Virus record (IMG/VR): IMGVR_UViG_3300025099_000001
Coordinates: 1,605 to 65,604 of that record
Source: a virus
Taxonomy: Duplodnaviria; Caudoviricetes
Direction: 5' to 3' (one strand)
Length of the DNA: 64,000 nucleotides
Below are positions 19,101 through 59,837 of the stretch, piece by piece (position 1 is the stretch's first letter; every line of letters begins with the position of its first letter). A program made the translations under genes and the position numbers. The notes beneath the pieces are model-generated. The model was not told where the DNA came from, did no database searches, and saw only the letters and a list, made by a program, of their open reading frames with translations.

Positions 19101-22100
19101 TATTGAATTATTTGTTGCTACTATCTGTCCGTTATTATCTGTAAGGAAACTTATAGTTAAACCTGTACCTCCTGCAGGACTAACTGTAGTAGGTACATTA
19201 TTATATTGTTGATTAGGAGGAAATGCTCCTGGTGTCGCAATGCTTAAAGCATATTGTACCCTGTCATTAACTAAAACTTTATCAGTATTTTGTAAATATC
19301 CTTTTGCTGTTAAATTAACTGCATTATTAAACTGAACTAAGTTGTTTGCTTTTGTGACTACATTATCTCCTCCTGTATAGATTAATTCAAAATTATTTAA
19401 ACCATCTAAATTTATTGGAGCAGTTGCACCATAATTTGTTTGAGGTGCTGTATTTGTAAATTTAATTTCTGTATCACTAACTCTGTCTACATCTATCCCT
19501 GTACTTCCTGTAAAAGTAGTTTCTGTAAAATCATATTTTTGTGGAGTTTCAAAAACTATTTGAAGCTTAGGATCTGCATTAGATGGTACAGGACTACCTG
19601 TTTCTATTACTTTAGTTCTTAAATCAGAATTAGTATATGGCTTAGTAAATGATTGTATTGCCCCTGCTGCCGTAATAGTATCTACATTTAAAGAAACTCT
19701 GGTTGAAAGTGCAGGATATCCTAACGCCTCTTCAATATCTATAGTGTCATTTACTTGATATCCTTTTCCTGCAGAATAAACAGATAAATTAGATAATACT
19801 CCTGCTGTGTTAGTAGCTGTTATCATGCATCCTGAACCTGTAGCACTGTTAGTCGTAGTGCTAAAAGTAACAGGATAACCTACGTTATTCATTGTTTGAT
19901 AAAGAGAAGGAACTCCTGCATTAATACTAAATGTTGCTACACCGCCCGTTCCAATATCTGACTGACCCGAACCTTCTAAAGTTAATGCTCCCGTTAGAGT
20001 ATTTAAAGAATCTACTACAGTTCCCGCTACTGATGGAACACCCCATGTATTATCAGCACGTAAGTAATGCGTTAACATTGTTGTAGTATCTAAAGAACTT
20101 GTGTCTGCACTTAACCCTACTGTAAGCTCATTAAATGTAGATAAAGGATCGCTTAAGTCAAGAGAGATATAACTTTTATTTACCGCAGGTGCTCCTGCTA
20201 TAGTATCAACCTTTTCTACAAAGGTGATTGTGTTATTTGTAACATCTACCGTTCCTGTAAAACTTGCAGGGTTTGTTGCTAAACCAAAAGAAGTAATACC
20301 TGCCGCTGCAGTTGCAGCAATAGTGATAGAGTCAGCACCACTATCTGTAATAGAGATGTTTGCCCCTTCTACTATTTTTATTGTGTCTCTTACAGCACTT
20401 GCATTTACTAAAGATATGTCAGCTTCTGTAGGTGTTATTACCGTTACCGTTCCTGTTACCAAAGAACCAGGTGTACCACCATTTACTGTAAATGTATCTC
20501 CCACCGCATAACCTGTACCTGCTGCTACCACTGTAATACCATTTAAATCTATAGCACCACCTGTGTTGGTGTATGAAACTGTTAAATCGTTATTACCTGA
20601 TCCTGATGTAACCTGTGTTCCAACAGTTCCCGTTGCGGTATATCCTGCTCCTCCTGCGGGATTTGTTACAGTTGATGTAGTTCCAGCTGCATTTGCTGTT
20701 AGTGTGTATGGAGAGTCTGTTCCTGCTGTTATATTTGTTATTATACCATAATCATCTACAGTTACGGAGGCATTACTAAAAGTTCCTGAACTATAAGCTG
20801 TTTGAGTTGGTAAATCTATATCTATATCACCCGAACTTGTAATAGGACTTCCGCTAATTCCTATTGTAGAGTTAGTTGATGTCAATCCTACCGAAGTCAC
20901 TGTTCCTCCTGAAGCGTTAGATGATATAGTTAAATCATTATTGTTATCTAAATTTAAAGTAATACCTGAACCTTTGTCTATATTTACAGAACTTGTTCTA
21001 ACGGCATCAGTATTTTTTAAAGTTATTGTATTAGAATTTACTGAAGTAATTTCTAAAGTTCTTGGGGTAGTTGGTGGTACTCCAGTTATTATTGAAAGAA
21101 CATCTCCTACTGAATATCCTGAACCAGCAGCATTTAGAGTCATTGAATTTATAGTTCCCGAAGGACCTGTTTGTATATCAAAAGTAGCTCCTGAACCTCC
21201 CGCAGGTGTAACCGTTGTTGGAGTATTAGTTGAGGTGTTGTTGATTGGATAACCCGCACCACTGTTTAGGATTGTTGTTGTACTAACAGATCCCGTGGCC
21301 ACAAAACTTAAGTCCCAATCATTTCCTGCAGGTACTGTAAACCCTCCCGTTTGACCATAATATGTGCCTGATACTACTGCAACTACCGAGCTTACTGCAT
21401 CATTGTTTCCGCTTGTTATGGTATATGTGTCACCTTGTTGATATCCTATTCCAGGATTTGTAATAGCTACAATCTCATCTACACCTCCCAAACCATCAAC
21501 AGTTATCTGTACCTTCAAGCCTGTACCTGTGCTTGGTGAGATTGCTACAGTGTCAAAAACACCATTTGTATTATAACCTGTTCCAATTACTGATGGTGTG
21601 TCATTAATTAGACTAACAGGACCTCCTTGTACTAAATTATTAGTTACTAATGATGATGTAATAACAGGGTTTGCAGGTACAGTATTATCAATACCTGTGT
21701 TTACATAATTAGTATTTACAGAGCCAATACCTGTTAGCGTTCCTGATCCACCACCACCACCATTAGTTCCCCAAACAGGTGTGGCTCCAATTCCTTGAGA
21801 AATTAATACTTGACCAGCTGTACCTGCACTACCTTTTAATTGAAATTCACTAAAGTCTCCCCATAAATTAAAAGCTCCGTTTTGTGCCTGAATAATTCCT
21901 TCTGTAGGTGAAAGACCCACTGCTGCGTTACCAGTTACAGCTACTATTGCGTTTGTTCCTGTTGCTGCCGTTCCAGCTGAATTGTCTAATACGTTTTGTA
22001 ATGTCGGTGCTATTTGAGCATTAGACCATATTGGTGTTGCTGTTGTTCCTTGAGATAAAAGAACTTGTCCTGCAGTTCCTGCACTGCCTTTTAAACGTAA

Positions 22101-23018
22101 CTCCGAATAATCTCCTGCAATATCTAAAGCACCATTAGTAATTTTTAAAATACCTTTTGTTGTGGGTACTCCAGTATCTGCATCTCCTGTAATATTTACA
22201 AATCCTCCAAAATCAAATGTTACAGCATCACCAAAAGTTGATGTTGAAGTTCCTAAAAATGAAACACCTACATCTGTTGCTGTATTTCCTTGTGTTAATA
22301 CTTGTTGTAAAGTATGAGGTGTATTAGTTGGACCACTTGACCATTTTACTCCGCTTCCTGTTGATACAAGTGCTTGCCCCGCAGAACCTTTACTATAAAC
22401 AGGTGCTACAGGTGGAATTGTATTACCATCGTCTATAGATATACCTGTAGTCTGAGAAATTTTTAATGCTGTAGAATTAACAAGGTTAAAGTCACCTACA
22501 TTTACGTTTAAACTTCCTCCTACATTAATAGGTCCTGCCCAATTCAAACTTGTTAGTGTATCTCCCGATAAACTACCCGCAACATTTCCTGGTTGAGTAA
22601 TTGAAAAACTTCCGTCTTGTAAATTTAAATTTTGTGACGAAACGGTATTGCCTAAAGTTACTACCTCATCCCATGTTTGAGATCCTCCCGAAATAGTATC
22701 CCATGCAATTCCTGTTCCTGTAGATGTTAATACTTGTCCTGCAGCACCATGAGATCCTTGAGTACCTGCTGAAATTACAGTCGGGAATACATCAACAGCT
22801 GTTAGTATTCCCGTACCTGTAAGTGTTAAATTATTAGCGGCTGAGTTTCCAATGCTTAAAACTGATGTTAAGTCTTGAGCAACTCCACCACCACCTACTA
22901 TATCGCTAATTTTAAAAGTAACCGTCCTATTATTATCATTTACATCTGTTCCAATTATTAAATCAGAACCAGCGGGTGTAATAGTAGGATACGCTGATAC
23001 ATCAAATATTTTAGCCAT
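16107..23018 (-). CDS. Giant tail fibre/adhesin protein
   Basis: 2303 aa, Gly/Thr-rich; shaft repeats, eight GxGY...GxGYxxGD modules, C-terminal YadA-head-like (I/V)AIG repeats. Confidence 0.8.
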   Translation of the reverse strand: MAKIFDVSAYPTITPAGSDLIIGTDVNDNNRTVTFKISDIVGGGGVAQDLTSVLSIGNSAANNLTLTGTGILTAVDVFPTVISAGTQGSHGAAGQVLTSTGTGIAWDTISGGSQTWDEVVTLGNTVSSQNLNLQDGSFSITQPGNVAGSLSGDTLTSLNWAGPINVGGSLNVNVGDFNLVNSTALKISQTTGISIDDGNTIPPVAPVYSKGSAGQALVSTGSGVKWSSGPTNTPHTLQQVLTQGNTATDVGVSFLGTSTSTFGDAVTFDFGGFVNITGDADTGVPTTKGILKITNGALDIAGDYSELRLKGSAGTAGQVLLSQGTTATPIWSNAQIAPTLQNVLDNSAGTAATGTNAIVAVTGNAAVGLSPTEGIIQAQNGAFNLWGDFSEFQLKGSAGTAGQVLISQGIGATPVWGTNGGGGGSGTLTGIGSVNTNYVNTGIDNTVPANPVITSSLVTNNLVQGGPVSLINDTPSVIGTGYNTNGVFDTVAISPSTGTGLKVQITVDGLGGVDEIVAITNPGIGYQQGDTYTITSGNNDAVSSVVAVVSGTYYGQTGGFTVPAGNDWDLSFVATGSVSTTTILNSGAGYPINNTSTNTPTTVTPAGGSGATFDIQTGPSGTINSMTLNAAGSGYSVGDVLSIITGVPPTTPRTLEITSVNSNTITLKNTDAVRTSSVNIDKGSGITLNLDNNNDLTISSNASGGTVTSVGLTSTNSTIGISGSPITSSGDIDIDLPTQTAYSSGTFSNASVTVDDYGIITNITAGTDSPYTLTANAAGTTSTVTNPAGGAGYTATGTVGTQVTSGSGNNDLTVSYTNTGGAIDLNGITVVAAGTGYAVGDTFTVNGGTPGSLVTGTVTVITPTEADISLVNASAVRDTIKIVEGANISITDSGADSITIAATAAAGITSFGLATNPASFTGTVDVTNNTITFVEKVDTIAGAPAVNKSYISLDLSDPLSTFNELTVGLSADTSSLDTTTMLTHYLRADNTWGVPSVAGTVVDSLNTLTGALTLEGSGQSDIGTGGVATFSINAGVPSLYQTMNNVGYPVTFSTTTNSATGSGCMITATNTAGVLSNLSVYSAGKGYQVNDTIDIEEALGYPALSTRVSLNVDTITAAGAIQSFTKPYTNSDLRTKVIETGSPVPSNADPKLQIVFETPQKYDFTETTFTGSTGIDVDRVSDTEIKFTNTAPQTNYGATAPINLDGLNNFELIYTGGDNVVTKANNLVQFNNAVNLTAKGYLQNTDKVLVNDRVQYALSIATPGAFPPNQQYNNVPTTVSPAGGTGLTISFLTDNNGQIVATNNSIEVTNDGSGYNSSDVLQIAAASLTPAGTVDAFLNITSVTADKASYIEISQLADAVNTTSSWALNGDTGTANITDNSIVSLLGGDGLNVTVVAGTTNTATITGSVFTLGDGLTTNGVQGFVPGPLIADFGTNKFLKVNGTWALPVTSINTLTDGIELVGSGDITLGVSGVASVVTVLTNQGSGYALNGIYATTVAPSGGTGLTLKVTAVGAAGEAQQVSVYSAGQGYTANDVVTLIGQSSSGTANTTVFTLTADNTIVVSTTESADVYDIKMSESSLGVATDPNLTLTRTNINGSAIVADNIQVLGETGIKVARNSDNAVTISAMIDGSGDITIGESGVESLTGVIAGGTGYVVNKIYSTTSSISGAGATIKVTGVNGNVVTTGVIYSKGRGYAIGETLTLIGLGSGNNATFDVNTITDENRIQISNVQDLEDGVTSVNSLEGDIDIKSSGDIIIGINGVETLNNATLSGGTGYVADRTYRTTGGGGTGLTVLVTGVTVGGVPSAVSVFAKGQGYTSGAVTLIGQGSDGGCTINISTLTSANDIQVSSSLTDLSQFTNSPGYTAISGGTQYFLAKFNQLGTTVENSNFIDRPTGLKELQGIGPNATTNEHYQLLISGTGYIGLTTTAASNTVRLGSGYLGTENDGTAVDSVYVGYNSGESITDGYSNTFIGKGAGADITTGFETTYIGKSAGAGTNNTNSRRSVAIGALAAQNAYGDGDVFIGRSAGNGNTNVTASPGTAQLMERVAIGLNAMSGLVSGTTVLQGNNRYSVAIGAFAGNAPGSTATGPLVGFRTHIGYKAGANEQGQTNPADNSGQIAIGTYAMWNHTSFKRGAIAIGEKAYTDTINAAPVIQSSWDVSIGAYSFGANGSFYPEITGEGNIAIGYLAGTDSTQATSMAGGTIAIGKRSRALNIDTIAIGADAAAGGNNIDNAIAIGKSAIAAVQNSLVIGKGAEASGAGIYIGSSSNPIGNVVNSSAGTLLNYLPITIDGTAYKIPLGT

Positions 23019-47037: not shown

Positions 47038-47116
47038 TGGAATATAAAAAATAATAATATAATATAATAATAATCAATAAGTTAGCTAAAAAATAGCTTG
47101 GAATAAGTTTGGAATG
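47038..47116. repeat. Second IHF-site plus TTGGAAT iteron module
   Basis: AATCAATAAGTTA at 47072; TTGGAAT at 47098 and 47109; TGGAATA at 47038. Confidence 0.6.
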
Positions 47117-49510
47117 GAAATGGAAATAACAATATTTAAGGACATAAAAAATACTGATCAACCTTTTTATAGAGAAGTAGAAATAACGTTAGAAAGAATT
47201 GAAAAAGGTAATTCAGCTGATATAGTAAAACAAGTAAGAGCTGAAAAAGACAAAGAAAAAAGAAACGAATTAAAAAAATTATTACCAGCTATATGTTTTA
47301 GTGGTAAGTTTTTAAAAAGAAATGACAAATCTTTAATTGAACATAGTGGACTTATATGTTTAGATTTTGATGGATACAAGACTAATAAAGAGTTATTACA
47401 AGAAAAAGAAAAGTTAACAAAAAACAAGTTTGTTTTTAGTGTATTTGTTTCTCCAAGTGGTAAAGGACTTAAAGCATTAGTTAAGATTCCATCTTTAGTA
47501 GAAAATCATAAAAGGTATTTTAAATCATTACAAAAATATTTAGATTCACCTTATTTTGATTCAACATCACAAAACGTTTCACGTGTATGTTATGAAAGTT
47601 ATGATCCTCTTATTTATGTAAATAAAACCTCAAGTATATGGGATAAAATAGAAGAGGCTGAGTTTGTTGAGGTAAATAAAAAAATAGATAAGCCTACTAT
47701 TCCAATAACAGATGAAAATAAAATTGTTGATATTTTAGTTAAATGGTGGGAGAAAAAATATGGATTAAAAAATGGAGAAAGAAATAATAATGTATACATT
47801 CTTGCTGCTGCATTTAATGATTTTGGAGTACCTCAAAATTTAGCTGAGTATGTTATGGGTAATTTTGATTCTAAAGATTTTAATATAAATGAAATAAAAA
47901 GAACAATTCAATCTGCATATGCAAACACACAAAATTTTGGAACAAAATATTATGAAGACGAAGACAGAGTTAATTTAGTAAAACAGCAATTAAGACGTGG
48001 AGTGCCAAAAAAAGAAATACGATGTCAATTAGAAGACGAAAATATTGATGTCGTAGATATTGAAAACGTAATGGTTCGTCTGGAAGAAGAACAAGCAGTA
48101 AGACAATTTTGGACAAAAAATGATAAAGGTGTTGTAAAAATTACTCATATATTATTTAAAAACTTTTTAGAAGATAATGGATTTTATAAATTTAATCCTG
48201 AAGGAAGTAAGAATTATGTTTTTGTTAGAGTTACAAACAATCTTATTGATCATACATCTGAAAAAGAAATAAAAGATTTTGTTTTAGATTATTTATTAAC
48301 TATAGATGACTTGTCGGTATACAATTATTTTGCTGAAAAAACCAAATACTTTAGGGAAGAATTTTTAACTCTTTTAGCATCTATAAATGTTTTTTTTATT
48401 GAAGACACAAAGACGACTGCTTATTTATATTATATGAATTGTGCAGTTAAAATTACTGTTAATGAAATTACTTTAATAGACTACATTGATTTAGGTGGTT
48501 ATGTATGGAGAGATCATGTTATAGATAGAAATTTTACTATGTGTAAGGTTGGTAAATGTGATTATAAAACTTTTATATCTAATATTTGTGGTGAGGATAG
48601 GAGCAGAATAGATTCTATGGAGTCTACTATAGGTTATTTATTACACGGTTGGAAAAATTTATCTTACTGTCCTGCTGTTATTTTAAATGACGAAGTTATC
48701 TCTGATAACCCTGAGGGAGGTACGGGTAAAGGTTTGTTTATGAATGGTTTATCTCATATGAAAAAAAATGTAACAATAGATGGAAAATCATTTGCTTTTG
48801 AAAGATCTTTTGCATATCAATTAGTTTCTGCCGACACACAGATATTGTGTTTTGATGACGTAAAAAAATCATTTGATTTTGAAAGATTGTTTTCTGTTAT
48901 TACTGAAGGATTAACTTTAGAAAAGAAAAATAAAGATGCAATTAAAATACCTTTTTCTAAATCACCTAAAGTAGCATTAACAACTAACTATGCGATAAAA
49001 GGTAAAGGTTCTTCATTTGAAAGAAGAAAGTGGGAGTTAGAGCTTGCACAACACTATACTAAAGAGTTTACACCTTTAGTAGAGTTTGGTAAGCTAATGT
49101 TTGGTGAATGGGATGATAACGAATGGTGTCAATTTGATAATTATATGATACAAAACCTACAAATTTATTTAAATAAGGGCTTACTTAAAAGTCAGTTTGT
49201 AAATTTAAAAATTAGAAAATTATCAGCAGAAACTTGTCATGAGTTTATAGAATGGTGTGGCTTAATTGGAGGTAGTCAGCCTAATGAAATGTTAAAACCT
49301 AACATAAGAATATTTAAACAAGATTTGTATGAAGACTTTATACATGAGCATCCTGATTTTGCTCCTAAATCAAAATTTACTATATCACGTAACAAATTTT
49401 GGTCCTGGATAAGATCTTATTCAATATTTAAATATAATATAGAATTTATAGAGGGTAGAAATATGAACGGTAGGTACATTGAATTTAAAACAGATGATGA
49501 TGAAATTTAG
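47114..49510 (+). CDS. Primase-helicase (VirE-N/BT4734-like primase, PriCT, SF3-like helicase)
   Basis: LKKLLPAICFSG..HSGLICLDFD..SPSGKGLK; GERNN; Walker A GGTGKG, Walker B ILCFDD. Confidence 0.8.
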   Translation: MEMEITIFKDIKNTDQPFYREVEITLERIEKGNSADIVKQVRAEKDKEKRNELKKLLPAICFSGKFLKRNDKSLIEHSGLICLDFDGYKTNKELLQEKEKLTKNKFVFSVFVSPSGKGLKALVKIPSLVENHKRYFKSLQKYLDSPYFDSTSQNVSRVCYESYDPLIYVNKTSSIWDKIEEAEFVEVNKKIDKPTIPITDENKIVDILVKWWEKKYGLKNGERNNNVYILAAAFNDFGVPQNLAEYVMGNFDSKDFNINEIKRTIQSAYANTQNFGTKYYEDEDRVNLVKQQLRRGVPKKEIRCQLEDENIDVVDIENVMVRLEEEQAVRQFWTKNDKGVVKITHILFKNFLEDNGFYKFNPEGSKNYVFVRVTNNLIDHTSEKEIKDFVLDYLLTIDDLSVYNYFAEKTKYFREEFLTLLASINVFFIEDTKTTAYLYYMNCAVKITVNEITLIDYIDLGGYVWRDHVIDRNFTMCKVGKCDYKTFISNICGEDRSRIDSMESTIGYLLHGWKNLSYCPAVILNDEVISDNPEGGTGKGLFMNGLSHMKKNVTIDGKSFAFERSFAYQLVSADTQILCFDDVKKSFDFERLFSVITEGLTLEKKNKDAIKIPFSKSPKVALTTNYAIKGKGSSFERRKWELELAQHYTKEFTPLVEFGKLMFGEWDDNEWCQFDNYMIQNLQIYLNKGLLKSQFVNLKIRKLSAETCHEFIEWCGLIGGSQPNEMLKPNIRIFKQDLYEDFIHEHPDFAPKSKFTISRNKFWSWIRSYSIFKYNIEFIEGRNMNGRYIEFKTDDDEI

Positions 49511-50735
49511 AGATTATCAATCAGAGATAATAAAAAAAGCTACTGATATATTTATGTATGGTTATAGTAATTTTGTTTACTTAGCTATGGAAGTTAGGAC
49601 AGGCAAAACACTGACTGCATTAGGAATTTGTTCTGAACTTAACGCAAAGAATGTTTTGTTTATTACAAAGAAAAAAGCTATTTCAAGTATTGAGCATGAT
49701 TTTTATTTACTTAAACCTCCCTACTATTTGGAAGTTATAAACTATGAATCTCTACATAAAATACCACAAACAAATTGGGATGCGGTTATTTGTGATGAAG
49801 CACATTCATTAGGGGCGTTCCCAAAGCCTAATAAAAGAGCTAAACAAGTAAAAGAAATATTAAGAAGATCAGCACCCTATGTTTTGTTTTTATCAGGTAC
49901 ACCAACACCTGAGTCTTACAGTCAAATGTATCATCAAGTATACGGAGTAGCTGGTAATCCGTTTTATAAATATAAAAACTTTTATGCTTTTGCTAAAACT
50001 CATGTAAACGTTACTCAGCGTAAAATAAATAGTATGATGATTAATGACTACTCAAAAGGATTAAAGTCCATTATAGAGGCTGTAAACCCCTTTAAAATAA
50101 ATTATACTCAACGTTCTGCAGGGTTTAAAACACAAACAGAAGAAAAAATATTATATGTAGAGTTAAATGAGCCAACAAAAAATTTAATAAAAAGATTAAA
50201 AAGAGACAGAGTTGTAGAAGGTGATGGCGAAATATTATTAGGAGACACAGGTGTTAAGCTTATGTCAAAAGTTCATCAACTTTGCTCAGGTACTGTAAAG
50301 TTTGAAAGCGGTAACGCTTTAACTATAGATTATAGTAAAGTACATTTTATAAAAAAATACTTTAAAGGTAAAAAAATAGCTATATTCTATAAATTTACAC
50401 AAGAGTACAAGGCATTAAAAGAAATTTATGGTGACGAATTAACTAATGACTTAGAAGAATTTAAAAGTACAGATAAATGCATAGCACTACAAATAGTTGC
50501 AGGGAGAGAAGGCGTTAGTTTAAAAGAGGCAGAAGCTCTGGTATACTATAATATTGATTTTAGTGCTACTTCTTATTTTCAAAGTCGTGATCGTATGACT
50601 ACAAAAGATAGAAAGTACAATAAAATTTATTGGATTTTTAGTAATAAAGGAATTGAAAATGATATCTACAAAGCTGTAGTAAAAAAGAAAGATTATACGC
50701 TATCACACTTTAAAAGAGATTCATTAGATTTGTAA
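49494..50735 (+). CDS. Superfamily 2 (SNF2-like) helicase
   Basis: FRDYQ, RTGKT, ICDEAH, LSGTP, QSRDR motifs. Confidence 0.85.
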   Translation: MMMKFRDYQSEIIKKATDIFMYGYSNFVYLAMEVRTGKTLTALGICSELNAKNVLFITKKKAISSIEHDFYLLKPPYYLEVINYESLHKIPQTNWDAVICDEAHSLGAFPKPNKRAKQVKEILRRSAPYVLFLSGTPTPESYSQMYHQVYGVAGNPFYKYKNFYAFAKTHVNVTQRKINSMMINDYSKGLKSIIEAVNPFKINYTQRSAGFKTQTEEKILYVELNEPTKNLIKRLKRDRVVEGDGEILLGDTGVKLMSKVHQLCSGTVKFESGNALTIDYSKVHFIKKYFKGKKIAIFYKFTQEYKALKEIYGDELTNDLEEFKSTDKCIALQIVAGREGVSLKEAEALVYYNIDFSATSYFQSRDRMTTKDRKYNKIYWIFSNKGIENDIYKAVVKKKDYTLSHFKRDSLDL

Positions 50736-51939: not shown

Positions 51940-52201
51940 ATAAAGATTGTTTTAGTTTTTCTTGGATTTCCAGTATTTCAGCACACTTTTCATACTCTTC
52001 AGTATAGATAAAATAATTAATAAGCTCACCATATATAGGGTCGTTGTGTCTTAATTTTTCTTTATTAGGATCATGTAAAAACCATAACTCATCCTCTGTA
52101 TCTAAAAAATCTATTAAACTTCTTTTCCCTGTAATTAGTTCATAGGTGTTGTTAAAACACTTGTCTTCATCAAAATTATTCTTCTCCATATATTTGCTCA
52201 T
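51932..52201 (-). CDS. Small protein with UVR-like C-terminal motif
   Basis: YFIYTEEYEKCAEILE resembles a UVR motif. Confidence 0.55.
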   Translation of the reverse strand: MSKYMEKNNFDEDKCFNNTYELITGKRSLIDFLDTEDELWFLHDPNKEKLRHNDPIYGELINYFIYTEEYEKCAEILEIQEKLKQSLFN

Positions 52202-55200
52202 ACATTTCAGGGTTAGTACGTTTCATTTCTGACTTACTCATTTTCTTACTACTATTTTTTAATTTTTTATTTTCTTGTATTTGCCGATACAAATCAGGAT
52301 TAGTTTGTTTTATATACTTCATATCTTCAGAACTATAAGCAGTCCCTGTTCCTGGACGATAGGACGGGCTAATACCAAATATATCATAAAATGCTTCGTT
52401 CTTGTCCTTACCTTGTCCTGCAAAATAATTATACATTCCTACAAAAGGATCAACCTGTGCTCCTAATAAAATCTCTACTAATGGCCTTAGACTTTTATCA
52501 ACTCTTCCATCTTTTAATCCTTTATTTACTTTTCTCATAACAGACTTGATAGGATTTACAACATCATCAGCATATCCTGAAGACTTACCTAAAGCTCTGT
52601 TTCTTGTTTCTTGTACTGCTGCACCAAAAAAAGGTATTTGATAAAGTAAGTTTAAACCATACATAGCTTCTTTTAATCTGTCCATAGCTTCTTCTTCGTC
52701 TTTATCATTACCCATAAATTTAAACATATTTGCTGCCAAAGCAAACATTACGTTAGCACCTGCAAAGTTTAAAACAAAAGCTCTTATGTCTTGTCTTCTT
52801 GGGGCTTTTTTACGAAATATAGCTCCCATAATATTACTTGTAGAACTCATAACTTTATTTATTTGTAAAAACAACGTACTACCAAACATAGTAAAAGCTC
52901 TTGTCATTTCATTTTGACTTTGCTGTAAAGGAATTTTATCTGTCTCTCTTCTTGACTGCTGAGTTGCATTATAATTATTAAAAGCTTCAGCCGCTTTAGC
53001 TTTGGACATTCCATTTGCAATATTAGCTTCGTAATTTACCATATAACCCATGACACCCATAATATCTCCCATTACCGTAGGCATAGCTGCACCTTTTTGA
53101 AACAGTGTAATAATTTTATTTTTAAAAGCTTTATAATCTTTTTCATTCAAAGCTTGTCTTAAATCTTTAATTCTTCTTTCAATTGGAGCTGTAGTTCTAC
53201 TTCCTGTTTCCAATCTGTATAAGTCTCCTTCTAATCCTTTACGCAAACGGTCTCTAAAGTCTGGAGATATTTCTTGTGCCAATTTCATGTAGTAAGGCAG
53301 CCTTGCAACAACTTTAGCCATACCAATCATAAAACCACCTGCACCACCCTTACCTTTATATTCTTCAAAGGCATTAACAAAAGATGTTGATTGTTTTAAT
53401 AATTGAATTGCTTTAAATGATAAAGCAAAACCTGTAAATTTACGTTGCAGTTTTGCAAGAACACCTTGATCCTTTACTCCCATAGATGGGTTTATAGCTA
53501 AATTTACTGATTCGTTTACTCTATCAGCAATACCTAAACGTGTTAGTAAAGTATTTACAGCAGGAACATTAAAAACTGCTTGTAAATTTTTTACTCCTAA
53601 TGCATAAGCCTTATATCTTTCCATTTGTGCAACATGGTTTTCTAAAGTTTCTACAAAATCAGGACCTGGATCTATTTCTCCAAACTCGTCTGTTCTTTCT
53701 TTTAATGACGGAGCAGTCTCAGCACTAAATACTTTTGAAAAATTACCACCCTTTATTAAATCTTGAGTTACATTTGAAGCTGATATACTTTTTGTAGGAA
53801 AATAGTTTTCTACAAAACCTAAATCAGTATAGTTAGCTTGTTTATATATATTGTTTATACTATTAAAGTAATCTGTACTTAACCAGTTTACAATTTTATC
53901 TACAAACTCTACAGCATCTGTTCCTATGGCTCCTTCTATTTGTGATATTTGATATTGGCCGAATCCTGAGTTTTCTAATTTTATTCTTTGAGTTTCGTTT
54001 TTACTTAAAGCGTATATTCTCATTAACTGTGTAACACTAAATACTTCTTGTGCTTTCCCTGTGGCTTTATTAATATATTTTGTATCTCCAAAGTCTATTT
54101 TTACAGGCTCAAATGGTAATTTTTGTTTTAAATCTTGATAGCTTTCTATACCTTCAATACTTGCGGCAATAGAATTTATCATTGTCTGTGCATTATAATA
54201 TCCTCTCAAGGCTTTAGTATGCATTCTATTTAATCCTTGATAAACAGTATCGTAGAAAAATGTATTTTTTAAATTTACATTATCTAAAATATTCATTAGA
54301 GTTCCTAAATGAGAAAGTCTGTTTCGTAAATAAGCACGTATACCTACTGTAGATGTAAATTTAAATTGATTAAAAAAGTTATTAATTTTACTTCTTGTGT
54401 CTCCTAAAAATCCTTCTTTATCTAAAGCATCAAAGTCTCTTTTATTTTTTAACTCTCCCTTACCATCATCATTAAACATTTCAGGATAGTTTTGTCTTAT
54501 TTGATTAGTTGCTGATTCAAAAATTTCATTATTAACTTCAGCTCGTTCTAATCTTGCCATATTTAACATAGCAATAGATTCTTTTTTAGCATCTTTCATT
54601 TTCTCTAATATATCAGTAACGGCCTCTAAGTCTAAGTTATATATATTATTAAATGTATCAAAAGCTAAAACACGAGCTAACAAGGTTTGTTCTCTTAAAG
54701 TAAGAGGTTCACCTCTTTTTTGTTTCTCTAATGTTATTTGAGTTTCTTGTTGATTAGAATCAATTAATGCAGAAATTGATAATAGCTTTTCTCCTCTGGA
54801 AACATTGTCTGGTGTCAAGGCAGCTTGTAACACTGATCTTACTTCTTTAAAAAATGCAACGCCTCCACCTTCTATGTTGGACGCTATTGGCCTTGATGAT
54901 TTAGTAGAAGCAGACTTGGCTAATTTACTAACCATAGCTTTTATCTCTTTAATCTTTTTTATCTTAACTTGTTTTCTTTTTCTTTCAACTGCGTTAAATA
55001 TTTTTTCACCTACAGACAAAATAGAATCAGGTCCTGCTGTTATAATTTTGTTTAGCATTCTATCTAATTCTGCCTTAGTAAACGTAGCTTCTTTTGGCAC
55101 GTACTTTCTAATTAATTGCTTTAACTGAAGTTGTATTTTTCTTAAATCTCTTTGTCCTTGTTTTTTTATAAACAAGTCTCTTTTCAAACGGCTAATACGT

Positions 55201-58200
55201 TTACTTATCTCTACACTTTGTACTTTACCTAACACACCTTTATAAGATATTTCTATGTTGTTTTGTATGTTTTTATCTTGTGCTTTAAATATGTCATTGT
55301 TTCTTAATATTTCAAAAGCTTTCTTTTCAGTTTGTATACGAGTAGCATCAGGCTTTTCTACTAAAAATTTATTTAACTCATATGATATTTGATTAAATAA
55401 AGTTTGACCTTCACTTATACCACCGTTTACTAATTGAAACTCCATTGGTATATCAGTAAAAGCTCCTTCTTTTTGTTCTAATGCAGCACGAGCTTCGTCT
55501 GTAGATAGTTTTCTGTTGTTGCGTAAATATTCAAATATAGCTGCCTCACTATAGTCTAATCCTCTTGCTTTAGCAACCACATCATTTATAGTATCTTGTT
55601 TGTTAAATATTCTTTTCTCTTGTGTTTCTCCTGTATACACTGATGTCTTGTCTGGTGCTTTATAACTACCCTCTACAACAGACACATTACGAACTGCGTA
55701 ATCTTTTCCTGATTTTTGCACAAGAACTTTACTTCCCGACTCTCTGTTTTGTGGTAAATGTAGTATTGGTTTACTACCGTCCTTTAATGATATATGAAAT
55801 GGATAGCTTGGGTGTGTATCTTTCTTGACTTCTACAGGACCATTAATTTCAACTATAGCATATATATCTCCCGTATTTAATCCTTTAGTTAATTTTTCAG
55901 CTGCCACTTGAGCAAGTAAGTCAACTAATGCTTGAGAACCAGGTTTTCCTGAAACTAATTTAGTTGTACCTTTACCAACTGATCTTGATTTGTCACCTCC
56001 TAAAAACTCAGCTATAGCAGCTTGGTCTTCTTTAGGTAGGTTTTTAGCTATTTCACCTACAATATCTTTAACCACAAATCCTCTTTTTTCAAACGTAGTA
56101 GTGTTTGGATTAGTAAAATATTTTTGTATATCAGTTTTTAAATCTCTGGCACTTTGTCTTAAATTTATAGTACCACCTGCTTTTTTTACAGCTGAAGAAA
56201 CTGCAGTTCTAAAATTAGATGCAGATATTAATTTTTTATCTAACATAGTATTTAGAATAGCTAAAGTAGAGTTAACACCTGAAGCACTACTGACTAATTT
56301 TGAGTCTGTTCCTTTTGTTAAAGTTAAAAAAGCCCTACCTCCATTTGCTTTTAATTGTTCATTTAATCCTCTCGCTATAGAGTTTGCTGTTCCTTTTTTT
56401 CCCGATGCCCAAACATCGCCAAATTTAGTTACAAAAAACACACCACCTTCTCCTTCAAAAATAACCTTACCATTAAACTTTATTTCACCTGCAAGCATAT
56501 CATCAGGAGATGTAATTACCGTTTCAAAACCTTCTAAGAAATTTACATTTTTAGGTTGAGTAACTAAACCTTTTTTAATCATTTCTGCAATACTATCTTG
56601 CTGGGTGTAGCTTACTTCAAACCCACCTACAACCATTGTTTTTAAAGCAGTTGATGGATTTTTTACTTCTTTACCACCTGCAAATAAATCAAGTTGTTTT
56701 ACATCTGACTTAGTAATTGTTTCTCCTGTTTGTACTTTACCTGCTACTACGTTTAATAAATCAATCAAAGCCTTATCAGTTCCAATAACATCTTCTGCTG
56801 TAAGCCCTAATAAATTACTTAGTTTGCTTATAAACCTTTTTATAATAGATTTTTGAGGTGCTTTTAAAGATGTATAGTTATTTGACAAATAACTAAAGAT
56901 TTCAGCCATATATTCTTCATTTGCATATGCTAATCTTGACGCATCATCTTTATTTCTTTCTTTATATAACGCAATATATTCGTCAATTTTCTTTTTTATT
57001 TCAGGGTCTAAATCAGCCTTTGCAAGAGCCTTCATCATTCTGTCTGTTAAAACTGCTATTTTACTTTCTGACCCTAATTTGTTTCTAAGTATAGCATGAA
57101 ATATTTCATGACTTAATACACGATCATTTGCAAGTTCAGCATTAATATGAATTACATTATCACCTCTAAAAACACCAGCAGACCTACCTTTTGGATTCCC
57201 AATAGCATTCATATAGTCTACCTCATTCTCATGTATTACTACCATCACATCAGGAAGTAATTTTTTTAATGCAGCTAAAGCTCTTTTAGCAGGTTTTATA
57301 AATTTTTCTGAGTTTATTCTTTTTGATTTGTCTGACTCGTTTACATAAGCGTTAGGTGCTATAGCTTTAAGTTCTTTTATTTTCGTTTTCTTTTGCGTGT
57401 CTTTTTTCTGTTGCTCAACTTTGTCTTTGACTTTCTTTCTGGTAGGCTTTTTACGTCCAGTGTTTCGTTTAGAAACTTTTGAAATAGGCTTGGCTTGTTT
57501 TTTGCCATCCACCTTAGTTGTGCTTTGCTTTGTAGTGGCATCGGGTTTAGTTTTTAATTCAGTTGGTGCTGTTAATTTAATAATACTTTTATCTAATACA
57601 ATAGTTTCAGGTGCTATAGGATTTGTAACCACAATAGCATCGTGGCCTGCTTCTATAATAGGTTTTAGTTTTTCTACTGTCCATACATCAGATTTTTCTA
57701 CTTTATACGGATTCTTTGGTGTAATTGTTGCTGTAAATTTATTACGAGTACCATCCGCTTTATACGTTCCTGCTCTATTAGCAGGACCAAAAAAGGCTAA
57801 GTTTGCAGGTGCAGGACCAAAAGTGGTATTGTTAGTGTTTTCAAAATCTAATGGTGCAAACAAATCTTGCTCAGACTCTTCACCGTATCTAATCATTGCC
57901 TCACCTTCATCTACTTTTTCTCCTACTACTTCTCCTTGTTCATTTGTAACTGTCTCTTCTGTATCTAATGCTACAGCTTCGGCTAAGTCTTGTGCTTCTT
58001 CTTTAGTTTCAGGAGTAGCTGTAATTTCTGTTTCTGTTTCTGTTTCTGTTTCAGCTACTTTTGCGGCAGCATCTCTTTTATCTTTTGCTACTAAATTTCT
58101 TGCATAAGCTCTTTCTTCTGAAGTAGCTGTATCAGTATTGGGTTTTAATTCTTTTAACTTTTTATCTATTTCTTCTTCAGTTATTTCTGTTTCTTCAACT

Positions 58201-59837
58201 TTAGTTTCTTTTGCTTCTTCAACCGCATTCATTTCCTCTATAATCTCAGCCCTTCTTTTCTTTGCAGGTTGTGATTTATTCCCTTCTAAACTATTTAATT
58301 CTTCTTGTAACGGAACTAATTTATCTAATTTTTCTTGACTTAACTTTGGGTTTGCATCTAAAATTTCTTTTTGTGCTGTTGATTTGCTATGAATTTTTTT
58401 CTTTCTATCAGCCGCTACTTTTTCTAACTCTGGATTGTTTTTAATAGTTATTTCAGCTGCGGCAAATTCTTCGTCTGTAGAATTATACACTAAATCTTCC
58501 ATTATTTCAGGATCAACACGTGTTAAATCTTTTTGACTCTCATCAAAATTTCCTTTATTTATATAGTATTTAGGTGATTTATATGCTGCTATTCCAAGTG
58601 TAGCAGGTAAAGTTGCTGTTCCCGCAAACCCTTCAAATAAAACTTCAGCTGCGTCCATTTCTTGATCAGCTGCTAATCGCCCTCCTACTTCACCAAGAGA
58701 ACCTCCCGCTGCCTCTATTGCTGCAACTTGCCCTGTCGCTTTAACTTTCTTACCTAAACCGTATGCTTTTCCACCTAATGTTCTTGCTCCTACTTTTATA
58801 CCTATCTTAGAAGCCATACCGTCAATAGCACCAATAACAAGTCCTCTTCCTGCTGATTTGTTTCTTATACTACTCATTGCTTCTTTATCTTCTAAGACTT
58901 TTCGTACCCCTGCTTCATCTAACTTTAAACCTCTGTCAACAACTTCTTTTTGTAATAATTCAGCAAAAGTTAATCCTGTTTCTAATGTTATTCCTGCACC
59001 CATAAAAAAACCTGCAGCACTTCCTATAGGTGAAGCAACAGAACCTGCAGCAGCACCTGCAGCAGCACCTGCTAATACAGTGGGGTTTACCATAGCACTC
59101 ATGGAAGAAACAAATAATTGAGGAATAGTGGATGGGTTATTCCAAACTCCCTTAACCCAACCCCAAGCACCACCACCGTTAGCTTGGTATATACGATTAA
59201 AGTCTTTCATCTCATCTGAAACACCTGCACTTTGTAATTGTCTTTGTGCTACTAAAAAGTCTTGTATGTCTTCTGAGGTTACTTCAGCTCCAATACGGGA
59301 TTTACCTAATATTTCTAATGACTCATCAATAGTGCCTCCCTGCACTTGTCCTTGAACACCTGCACGCCACATATCGCCAAAAAAATCTGTAAATTCATTT
59401 TTACCAAATACTCTTTCAATTGCAGTATCCTTCTCACCAACTGATAAGTCTTGCATTTGAGCATCGGCATAAACAGGGCTGTAGGGTTTAACCTCAGCCA
59501 TTTCAAAATCAAGGTTTTGACTTTGTAAATAATCCGAAGTACCAACTCCTTCTTGTTCCGTGATAACTTCCTCCGTAATTTCCGTGTCCCCAGAACCATC
59601 TGAAACCACTTCTGGACTTTCTTGAGTCGGTTCTTTTTTTTTTACAGGTTGCTGAAATCCAACTAATATATTAAAATCGTCTTCAGACTTTTGATATCCA
59701 TTTTTTCTTGCAAGTCCATACATCTGATTTACTGCTTCAGGATTTTGTTGCATTAAAATAGTAAACTCTTCTAAAGATTTTTTATAACCATCTTGTTGAG
59801 CTAACCCATATAAAGTTTCTAAAGCTTCTTTATTCAT
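52176..59837 (-). CDS. Giant internal virion/ejection polyvalent protein
   Basis: 2553 aa; Gly/Ala hydrophobic segments; zincin HEIFH..EEYMAE; ART-like segment; follows pilot and GNAT genes as in T7 gp13-16. Confidence 0.7.
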   Translation of the reverse strand: MNKEALETLYGLAQQDGYKKSLEEFTILMQQNPEAVNQMYGLARKNGYQKSEDDFNILVGFQQPVKKKEPTQESPEVVSDGSGDTEITEEVITEQEGVGTSDYLQSQNLDFEMAEVKPYSPVYADAQMQDLSVGEKDTAIERVFGKNEFTDFFGDMWRAGVQGQVQGGTIDESLEILGKSRIGAEVTSEDIQDFLVAQRQLQSAGVSDEMKDFNRIYQANGGGAWGWVKGVWNNPSTIPQLFVSSMSAMVNPTVLAGAAAGAAAGSVASPIGSAAGFFMGAGITLETGLTFAELLQKEVVDRGLKLDEAGVRKVLEDKEAMSSIRNKSAGRGLVIGAIDGMASKIGIKVGARTLGGKAYGLGKKVKATGQVAAIEAAGGSLGEVGGRLAADQEMDAAEVLFEGFAGTATLPATLGIAAYKSPKYYINKGNFDESQKDLTRVDPEIMEDLVYNSTDEEFAAAEITIKNNPELEKVAADRKKKIHSKSTAQKEILDANPKLSQEKLDKLVPLQEELNSLEGNKSQPAKKRRAEIIEEMNAVEEAKETKVEETEITEEEIDKKLKELKPNTDTATSEERAYARNLVAKDKRDAAAKVAETETETETEITATPETKEEAQDLAEAVALDTEETVTNEQGEVVGEKVDEGEAMIRYGEESEQDLFAPLDFENTNNTTFGPAPANLAFFGPANRAGTYKADGTRNKFTATITPKNPYKVEKSDVWTVEKLKPIIEAGHDAIVVTNPIAPETIVLDKSIIKLTAPTELKTKPDATTKQSTTKVDGKKQAKPISKVSKRNTGRKKPTRKKVKDKVEQQKKDTQKKTKIKELKAIAPNAYVNESDKSKRINSEKFIKPAKRALAALKKLLPDVMVVIHENEVDYMNAIGNPKGRSAGVFRGDNVIHINAELANDRVLSHEIFHAILRNKLGSESKIAVLTDRMMKALAKADLDPEIKKKIDEYIALYKERNKDDASRLAYANEEYMAEIFSYLSNNYTSLKAPQKSIIKRFISKLSNLLGLTAEDVIGTDKALIDLLNVVAGKVQTGETITKSDVKQLDLFAGGKEVKNPSTALKTMVVGGFEVSYTQQDSIAEMIKKGLVTQPKNVNFLEGFETVITSPDDMLAGEIKFNGKVIFEGEGGVFFVTKFGDVWASGKKGTANSIARGLNEQLKANGGRAFLTLTKGTDSKLVSSASGVNSTLAILNTMLDKKLISASNFRTAVSSAVKKAGGTINLRQSARDLKTDIQKYFTNPNTTTFEKRGFVVKDIVGEIAKNLPKEDQAAIAEFLGGDKSRSVGKGTTKLVSGKPGSQALVDLLAQVAAEKLTKGLNTGDIYAIVEINGPVEVKKDTHPSYPFHISLKDGSKPILHLPQNRESGSKVLVQKSGKDYAVRNVSVVEGSYKAPDKTSVYTGETQEKRIFNKQDTINDVVAKARGLDYSEAAIFEYLRNNRKLSTDEARAALEQKEGAFTDIPMEFQLVNGGISEGQTLFNQISYELNKFLVEKPDATRIQTEKKAFEILRNNDIFKAQDKNIQNNIEISYKGVLGKVQSVEISKRISRLKRDLFIKKQGQRDLRKIQLQLKQLIRKYVPKEATFTKAELDRMLNKIITAGPDSILSVGEKIFNAVERKRKQVKIKKIKEIKAMVSKLAKSASTKSSRPIASNIEGGGVAFFKEVRSVLQAALTPDNVSRGEKLLSISALIDSNQQETQITLEKQKRGEPLTLREQTLLARVLAFDTFNNIYNLDLEAVTDILEKMKDAKKESIAMLNMARLERAEVNNEIFESATNQIRQNYPEMFNDDGKGELKNKRDFDALDKEGFLGDTRSKINNFFNQFKFTSTVGIRAYLRNRLSHLGTLMNILDNVNLKNTFFYDTVYQGLNRMHTKALRGYYNAQTMINSIAASIEGIESYQDLKQKLPFEPVKIDFGDTKYINKATGKAQEVFSVTQLMRIYALSKNETQRIKLENSGFGQYQISQIEGAIGTDAVEFVDKIVNWLSTDYFNSINNIYKQANYTDLGFVENYFPTKSISASNVTQDLIKGGNFSKVFSAETAPSLKERTDEFGEIDPGPDFVETLENHVAQMERYKAYALGVKNLQAVFNVPAVNTLLTRLGIADRVNESVNLAINPSMGVKDQGVLAKLQRKFTGFALSFKAIQLLKQSTSFVNAFEEYKGKGGAGGFMIGMAKVVARLPYYMKLAQEISPDFRDRLRKGLEGDLYRLETGSRTTAPIERRIKDLRQALNEKDYKAFKNKIITLFQKGAAMPTVMGDIMGVMGYMVNYEANIANGMSKAKAAEAFNNYNATQQSRRETDKIPLQQSQNEMTRAFTMFGSTLFLQINKVMSSTSNIMGAIFRKKAPRRQDIRAFVLNFAGANVMFALAANMFKFMGNDKDEEEAMDRLKEAMYGLNLLYQIPFFGAAVQETRNRALGKSSGYADDVVNPIKSVMRKVNKGLKDGRVDKSLRPLVEILLGAQVDPFVGMYNYFAGQGKDKNEAFYDIFGISPSYRPGTGTAYSSEDMKYIKQTNPDLYRQIQENKKLKNSSKKMSKSEMKRTNPEMYEQIYGEE
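57377..57541 (-). CDS. Overprinted small basic protein (+1 frame inside the giant ORF)
   Basis: MPLQSKAQLRWMAKNKPSLFQKFLNETLDVKSLPERKSKTKLSNRKKTRKRKRK. Confidence 0.6.
   Translation of the reverse strand: MPLQSKAQLRWMAKNKPSLFQKFLNETLDVKSLPERKSKTKLSNRKKTRKRKRK

Follow-up and report, generated by a model that had tools for sequence, protein, structure and literature searches.

A conserved slip site and a conserved -1 reading frame near the start of a giant gene in uncultured phages

Why should a phage gene of 2553 codons carry, so soon after its start, ten consecutive adenines? The gene lies on the minus strand of a 64,000-nucleotide (nt) stretch of DNA, here called the window (positions 1,605 to 65,604 of IMG/VR virus record IMGVR_UViG_3300025099_000001; Duplodnaviria, Caudoviricetes; G+C content 32%), the complete record being of 65,604 bp, with direct terminal repeats. 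An earlier reading, made from the letters of the window alone (the sequence-only reading), had proposed that programmed ribosomal frameshifting or transcriptional slippage at this run yields short isoforms that share the N-terminus of the giant protein, one of about 109 amino acids (aa) through the -1 frame and another of about 174 aa through the +1 frame. The first of these has stood, with run, frame and motifs all found to be conserved, and the second has fallen. Comparison of relatives establishes that a slip site, an open -1 frame and the peptide specified in that frame are each conserved, and it seems probable (we would say about 0.8) that the run is a programmed recoding site giving access to the -1 frame and to a second protein of about 109 aa.

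The run and its equivalents in relatives

The elements needed at the outset are:

52176..59837, minus strand: the giant gene in frame 0, encoding a protein of 2553 aa
59643..59837, minus strand: codons 1-65, encoding the shared N-terminal domain, in which an acidic helix-loop-helix unit is duplicated in tandem
59634..59643, minus strand: the putative slip site, A10 in the mRNA sense (T10 on the plus strand), read as GTA AAA AAA AAA GAA at codons 65-68

The run is placed at codon 65 of the 2553-aa gene exactly as the sequence-only reading had it, and is the only homopolymer of at least 10 in the window, the next longest being of 9; within it the in-frame heptamer A_AAA_AAA, which has the X_XXY_YYZ form associated with ribosomal frameshifting, occurs twice. 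Homologous loci were obtained from viral contigs (29), from metagenome contigs (80), by way of a divergent member of the family (17) and from a single GenBank record. The 5' part could be read through in 123 genes, and the 108 that are distinct over their first 1200 nt form the set used for counts. In 92 of the 108, at least 10 A residues are found at nt 170-233, right after the N-terminal domain, the run being A10 in 81 genes, A11 in seven, A12 in one and A13 in three, and never shorter than 10. The codon preceding the lysine codons ends in A in all 92, yet encodes Val, Leu, Gln, Pro, Glu, Ser, Ala or Gly (GTA 48, TTA 29, CAA 7, CCA 3, GAA 2, and TCA, GCA and GGA 1 each). The run is present in 35 of the 44 clusters formed at 80% identity of the conserved core, and in a tree of that core (FastTree) it occurs to either side of the midpoint root. 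The pattern named beforehand as one that would tell against recoding, in which homologues interrupt the run with AAG and have early stops in both alternative frames, is thus not the one found, as 92 of 108 keep at least 10 A and the -1 frame remains open.

Elsewhere, such runs are scarce. Nine of the ten KKK tripeptides in the window contain AAG, though AAA accounts for 80% of lysine codons (41 open reading frames, ORFs, of at least 120 aa). In the giant genes, outside the site, only two of 75 distinct KKK tripeptides are encoded entirely by AAA, against 32 expected (Fisher test, 9e-46), and no other A-run reaches 10. The interruption of lysine triplets by AAG across the ORFs of the window suggests that long A-runs are costly in phage and host.

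The 16 genes that complete the set are instructive, for a slip device of one of three kinds is present in 103 of the 108. A clade of six genes has T9 at the same position (gaT TTT TTT TTA, read in frame 0 as FFL), which includes the in-frame heptamer T_TTT_TTA; this clade is nested among A-run clades with local support of 99%. A homopolymer of about nine or more A or T, as would be looked for in transcriptional slippage, is therefore kept within the coding sequence as A10 or longer in 92 genes and as T9 in six. Another nested clade, of five genes, lacks a homopolymer and has instead an in-frame G_GGA_AAG, a classical -1 heptamer and the motif of the G/GT frameshift of phage lambda; in one of its members (L025) the -1 ORF opens exactly at this heptamer. 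Beginning 6 nt 3' of G_GGA_AAG in this clade is a stem, GCUGUC(G)/(C)GACAGC, which is perfect in L024; L025 and L027 each have a single G-U pair in it, and in L028 the loop is larger. All three devices lead into the same conserved -1 peptide. The replacement of the lysines in the T9 and heptamer clades, with a slip device kept in both, indicates that it is slipperiness that has been conserved, and not lysine.

A further example is provided by the uncultured podovirus MW202828.1, from a freshwater spring (locus L128, 10575-13820, reverse complement), which has A11 after the same two-repeat N-terminal domain. Its -1 peptide is more divergent (KKKRRGRPKYKRYCIKLGRYSICIERKY), and the site is annotated there within a single coding sequence, as 'reticulocyte binding/rhoptry protein', with no recoding.

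The -1 frame as a coding frame

What, then, would be read after a shift? The relevant features are:

59512..59634, minus strand: the predicted trans-frame tail, 41 codons in the -1 frame (RTDSRKSRSGFRWFWGHGNYGGSYHGTRRSWYFGLFTKSKP), overlapping an acidic and poorly conserved linker in frame 0
59509..59511, minus strand: TGA in the -1 frame, which would end the 109-aa product
59572..59577, minus strand: conserved Tyr-Gly of the -1 peptide, the Gly present in 78 of 79 distinct tails with its third base free
59533..59544, minus strand: a second conserved motif of the -1 peptide, W-[FLY]-[IF]-G (here WYFG)

Both the opening and the stop at 59509-59511 are as the sequence-only reading described them, the frame running KKK, then RTDSRKSRSGFRWFWGHGNYGGSYHGTRRSWYFGLFTKSKP, then TGA. 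Across the family the -1 frame has been kept open for 19-49 codons. To assess how readily this could arise by chance, synonymous codons were shuffled 5000 times in each of 12 representatives, retaining the frame-0 protein and the gene's own codon usage. A -1 frame as open as that observed was given by 0.5% of shuffles for the window, and by 0.02-9.5% in the 12 of 12 representatives (1.6% or less in 10 of them); the combined P is 4e-13, 11 representatives being counted once each and the lineages being related to one another. Codon choice in the overlap is correspondingly odd: ACG provides three of five Thr codons, against nine of 149 in the rest of the gene, and codons that precede one starting with GA, AA or AG end in T in none of 14 cases, against 294 of 838 (35%) elsewhere (binomial, 0.0024). 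The unusual ACG, CCG, TCG and GTG codons are there because codons ending in T would create stops in the -1 frame. The remark in the sequence-only reading about rare G-ending codons was therefore well founded, there being no NNT-GAN pair in the overlap.

The pattern of substitution is consistent with this. Changes in the overlap are spread about equally over the three frame-0 codon positions (10, 9 and 10 among 40 codons in the comparison of the window with L004; 4, 6 and 9 among 32 in that of L014 with L019), and in pairwise comparisons of the conserved core third-position changes dominate. When the same nucleotides of 11 clade representatives were translated in the three frames and aligned (MAFFT), the sum-of-pairs score was 1477 for the -1 frame (z 9.5, relative to shuffled peptides), 148 for frame 0 (z 4.9) and -138 for +1 (z 5.6). 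The 70 unique -1 peptides share the pattern R-(R)-F-x-x-[WF]... [RK]-Y-G-[IF]-x-[YI], a variable loop, and W-[FL]-[IF]-G-x-[FT] with a stop soon after, the shortest form being KKKRRYGIRIGRWFFGAYPLIS. The alignment of homologues that had been suggested as a check thus finds the A-run, the open -1 frame, the 'RWF' region and the Y-G and W-x-x-G motifs all conserved. Most telling is the codon alignment of the 79 distinct tails: 78 have the first Gly, with entropies of 0, 0.10 and 1.45 bits at codon positions 1, 2 and 3, and 73 have the second, with the same codon pattern, while Tyr is found in 67 and Trp in 59. The free third base of these -1 Gly codons is the middle base of a frame-0 codon, which shows that selection has acted on the -1 protein, and not on frame 0 or on a nucleic acid signal. 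An open and conserved -1 frame with a third-position signature of its own is what would be expected of a functional shifted-frame product.

Could the lysines and linker nevertheless have been kept for the giant protein or for the nucleic acid itself (as a basic hinge, a protease site or a DNA or RNA signal), the open -1 frame being a by-product and no second protein being made? Asp, Glu, Ser, Thr and Gly codons read one base early do naturally yield Arg, Gly, Phe, Tyr and Trp; lysine is mostly encoded by AAA (80%); and, with the residues taken as given, A10 would arise by chance with a probability of 0.14-0.37 in each lineage. The data disfavour such an explanation, and we regard it as very improbable indeed, since the T9 and heptamer clades have FF(L) or LGK in place of KKK and yet retain the -1 peptide; since the frame-0 linker is poorly conserved, with the -1 Gly codons fixed at bases 1 and 2 and free at base 3; since stop-creating NNT-GAN pairs number none of 14, against 35%; and since shuffles that keep the amino acid composition still reject chance.

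If there is a second protein, the -1 frame must be entered from frame 0, for the stretch ahead of the motif is free of ATG, GTG and TTG in 88 of 102 -1 ORFs (in one clade of eight, an ATG occurs 15 nt before the run). An independent start within the -1 frame was rejected for the same reason.

The +1 frame has a quite different history:

59315..59632, minus strand: the 105 open codons of the +1 frame beyond the run, with a 94-aa ORF among them (59315..59599); lineage-specific and not conserved

An opening of 105 codons is confined to the close clade of the window. In most other clades it is of 20-59 codons, and in L035, 84% identical over the first 400 aa, it closes after eight. The shuffles gave P values of 0.0002 for the window and for L003 and of 0.03-0.86 for the other 10 representatives, so the openness is within expectation in most, and the proposed isoform of about 174 aa could not be upheld. 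A +1 isoform was accordingly rejected as a conserved feature. The opening in the window and its closest relatives is a lineage-specific oddity or a matter of chance; it is probably only the reading of transcripts that have lost one A, or chance, and any +1 reading from such a loss would be a tolerated by-product.

The predicted short protein and how it might be made

In this phage the predicted product would consist of residues 1-68 of the giant protein followed by 41 new residues, making 109 aa, and across the family its length would be 82-130 aa (median 99). The N-terminal part had been described as a tandem duplication, and the alignment bears this out, two units of about 28 aa being present in all relatives. 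It is modelled as four helices (AlphaFold2; predicted local distance difference test, pLDDT, 73) and has a median net charge of -8 across relatives. The tail has a median net charge of +6 and is 23% aromatic, and when modelled with its alignment forms three beta strands with moderate confidence (pLDDT 69.7). Fold searches of the PDB gave no match for the tail model (best E 3.4) or the N-terminal domain (best E 5.2). The top BFVD matches of the N-terminal domain are long, uncharacterised proteins from uncultured viruses that evidently belong to the family, and its nearest clusters in the ESM Atlas are viral hypothetical proteins of 49-62 aa without a Pfam family. Predicted tryptic peptides of the tail include SWYFGLFTK and those spanning WFWGHGNYGGSYHGTR.

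From these comparisons we infer the occurrence of the shift, the machine that slips and the role of the product. Most transcripts or ribosomes would be read straight through, giving the 2553-aa virion protein. A fraction would enter the -1 frame after codon 68 and terminate 41 codons on, giving a protein of 109 aa made up of the acidic four-helix N-terminal domain, KKK, and a basic, aromatic, beta-rich tail with the Y-G and W-x-x-G motifs. In lineages with A-runs or T-runs, the transcribing RNA polymerase would most likely add a single A (or U) as it copies the homopolymer, a transcript longer by one A encoding exactly the -1 product, while in the heptamer clade a ribosomal -1 frameshift on G_GGA_AAG, followed by the hairpin, would lead to the same -1 peptide. 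The ratio of short to giant product would be fixed by the rate of slipping.

Which machine slips at the runs? The combination of heptamer, 6-nt spacer and hairpin points to ribosomal -1 frameshifting in the G_GGA_AAG clade, the only one in which a downstream structure was found. At the A-runs and T-runs, RNA polymerase is to be favoured over the ribosome by about two to one, as judged from the arrangement of these sites. The ribosome might also slip there (by -1 tandem slippage on A_AAA_AAA or T_TTT_TTA, or by sliding on poly(A)), giving the same product from an mRNA colinear with the DNA: in-frame X_XXY_YYZ heptamers do lie within the runs, and a sister clade reaches the same -1 peptide through G_GGA_AAG and a hairpin 6 nt downstream, so that the ribosomal route into this frame would be in use in the family. 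This strikes us as unlikely, though a rival to be taken seriously. A heptamer, or seven A residues, would suffice for the ribosome, yet all 92 A-run genes have at least 10, including the wobble base of a variable preceding codon; the synonymous and usually more shift-prone A_AAA_AAG is never used, even though a sister clade shifts at AAG; and no common 3' structure is associated with the runs, no shared helix having been found in 18 A-run and T-run representatives (z -2.8 to +1.3). The 70 nt that follow the run in the window have a folding energy of -15.4 kcal/mol (z -0.41) and do not provide the stimulatory structure that would be looked for 5-9 nt downstream. A further consideration in favour of polymerase slippage is that the T-run (9) is shorter than the A-runs, matching the reported requirement of bacterial RNA polymerase for at least 7 T and for more A (PMC6260861). 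Runs of 9 A or T are likewise reported as efficient, the RNA-DNA hybrid being of 9-10 bp (PMC5009743).

A third possibility is phase variation, the run being a hypermutable DNA tract with A10 and A11 subpopulations, so that the two proteins come from different genomes. This would be manifested as run-length variants in public assemblies, and a profile built from 49 tails did pick out, among 1.84 billion representative proteins, 25 ORFs (P0002-P0026; E 1e-9 to 8e-4) of 62-124 aa in which the tail is C-terminal, behind a part resembling the N-terminal domain, in a single frame. P0016, among these, agrees in every letter with the predicted 109-aa product (window 59512-59837, minus strand) and is found on four contigs, the longest of 21,574 bp. 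In addition, the run of L057, one of the 124 loci that reach the site, is one base shorter than that of its close relative L051, leaving the N-terminal domain out of frame with the body. Against this, the giant frame is intact in all 92 A-run genes of the distinct set (which does not include L057), and the ten variant ORFs that were looked up proved to be singleton clusters, each on 1-4 contigs. These are therefore best seen as rare run-length variants (A11 or A8) in assemblies, and may come from DNA polymorphism, homopolymer error or RNA-derived assemblies. Moreover, a genome fixed at A11 would lack the giant protein unless slippage restored the frame. Run length was thus not found to toggle the gene at the DNA level, and phase variation, which we consider improbable as the explanation of the site, is compatible with slippage and secondary to it.

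Two observations on these variants may be recorded here. In P0006, P0014, P0017/P0020, P0024 and P0025 the N-terminal parts are unlike the usual two-repeat domain. In L057, the run is A11 (about 900 nt upstream of the tblastn match), versus A12 in L051, and the N-terminal domain is in frame with the +1 reading; this is the only out-of-frame case among the 124 loci, and may be an assembly error or a real indel.

Several points limit the interpretation of the run as a programmed recoding site, or weigh against parts of it. Of four assembled sequencing runs compared with the window, only X17 (labelled RNA, though probably DNA) crosses the A-run, and it shows A10 and no indel, which bears neither way on slippage; assembled RNA contigs X19 and X20 cover 59242-59499, 59752-59785 and 59304-59454, with 59512-59751 lying outside them. 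A_AAA_AAA and T_TTT_TTA are also legitimate heptamers for -1 ribosomal shifting, and the hairpin of the heptamer clade is supported by four sequences that covary only weakly. The 25 public ORFs may be homopolymer errors. The tail model is of only moderate confidence and matches no solved fold, and the basic, aromatic and Gly-rich make-up of the tail is partly due to the reading of an acidic Ser/Thr/Gly linker one base early. Finally, five of the 108 genes (L030, L103, L104, L106 and L121) have none of the three devices, from which it would follow that some lineages can do without the isoform or produce it by other means. The last of these genes, which starts at locus position 1366, is divergent, has a single unit in its N-terminus and lacks a homopolymer; it retains a -1 ORF ending ...QYGIQLGKYFVGITRR, with the tail motif, and a search for a slip site ahead of the motif found none, there being an in-frame G_GGA_AAT inside the motif and an A_AAA_AAC upstream that is followed almost at once by a -1 stop.

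What might a short protein do? The conservation of the tail implies that the peptide itself matters. The sequence-only reading supposed that the shared domain may target the capsid. One guess is a small protein, internal to the virion or a partner of the giant protein, which would dock through the N-terminal domain common to both and carry a cationic, aromatic beta module; another idea is that the shift is a device setting the yield of the giant protein. A more elaborate scheme, which we hold tentatively and as rather less than an even bet, is that the N-terminal docking domain is combined with a cationic, aromatic, three-stranded beta module that binds DNA or membrane, the protein being packaged or acting with the giant protein in a stoichiometry set by the rate at which host RNA polymerase slips on A10 or T9; that lineages have swapped polymerase slippage and ribosomal frameshifting; and that the run is perhaps an A10/A11 toggle in the DNA, made tolerable by high slippage.

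Precedents, the giant gene and its surroundings

The closest precedent is dnaX, with its tau and gamma products. There too, a full-length and a shorter protein have a common N-terminus, and related lineages use either a ribosomal heptamer with a structure or slippage on a run of about 9-10 A or T: the same pair of products arises by a ribosomal -1 shift (A_AAA_AAG) in Escherichia coli and by polymerase slippage in Thermus thermophilus (PMC5009743). The short dnaX product, however, ends almost at once after the shift, with no conserved domain in the new frame, whereas here the shift would come at codon 68 of 2553 and the new frame specifies a conserved module of 19-49 residues; and dnaX is a replication gene, while the present gene belongs to a phage structural module. 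Selected runs of about nine or more A or T that give trans-frame or truncated products are also described in the coding regions of insertion sequence (IS) orfA/orfB pairs and of Shigella type III secretion genes (spa13, mxiE, spa33 and mxiA; PMC5009743), and some IS families alternate between motifs for programmed ribosomal frameshifting and longer A-runs. In most of these cases two ORFs are joined to make a longer protein; here, a shift would give one much shorter than that of frame 0. In potyviruses, P3N-PIPO is a short conserved ORF lying over a long polyprotein gene, without a start of its own, that is reached by the addition of one A at a conserved A-run, and it was recognised through conservation in the overlapping frame (PMC5027478), all of which is like the situation here; it differs in belonging to an RNA virus with its own replicase and a eukaryotic host, and in its shorter run (GA6).

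Among phages, lambda G/GT and T7 gene 10A/10B resemble our case in that recoding in a morphogenesis gene gives two proteins with a common N-terminus in a fixed ratio. In both, the shift is near the 3' end and the product is extended, whereas here it would be near the 5' end, with a shorter product; and the G/GT pair precedes the tape-measure gene, whereas the site described here is in the giant gene, most lineages having a homopolymer in place of the heptamer. A tail assembly chaperone of the lambda G/GT type was rejected, given a shift at codon 68 of 2553 and a shorter product, and searches of Pfam and PHROGs with the proteins tested brought up no chaperone. In tailed phages, most of the recoding known is in tail-chaperone and capsid genes, and the site seems best regarded as a well-conserved addition, in an unusual place, to the known class of programmed frameshift and slippage sites. 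We did not find it described in the literature, in a search that excluded subscription-only papers and supplementary files, where an earlier mention is possible.

The site adds a deeply conserved candidate for recoding to the largest gene of widespread and abundant uncultured marine phages (of about 60-65 kb), and would reveal a protein that is reported by no gene caller. The alternation of homopolymer and heptamer for one product is a natural experiment on polymerase slippage and ribosomal frameshifting, and the family should be suited to measuring slippage by RNA polymerases of the Bacteroidota type, if the host has been correctly inferred. For annotation, it implies that what looks like a homopolymer 'sequencing-error hotspot' in a phage contig from a metagenome can have a function as a signal, and that short ORFs arising from run-length variants are not junk calls.

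As to the giant protein itself, residues 130-609 match PHROG 32588 (phrog_32588, a PHROG of unknown function), its sole match in PHROGs, and a Pfam scan found no family in it. Parts of it resemble proteins of Flavobacterium phages annotated 'structural protein' and a giant protein of MW202828.1. The adjoining genes include members of PHROG 'virion structural protein' families, and a P22-like portal is encoded elsewhere in the window; taken with the matches, these make 'giant virion or ejection protein' a reasonable, though not a proven, label. The host is presumed to be of the Bacteroidota type. A scan of the phage record for a T7-like RNA polymerase (PF00940) gave no match, though control genomes likewise gave none, and no tRNA genes were found.

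Two further features of the window may be mentioned. A second giant ORF (16107-23018, minus strand; 2303 aa, without a Pfam family) means that this phage has two proteins of more than 2300 aa. A primase-like ORF (47114-49510, plus strand), with a BT4734-like N-terminal domain, PriCT_1 and DUF5906, overlaps by 32 nt a helicase ORF (49479-50735, plus strand; ResIII and SNF2) that was called with a TTG start.

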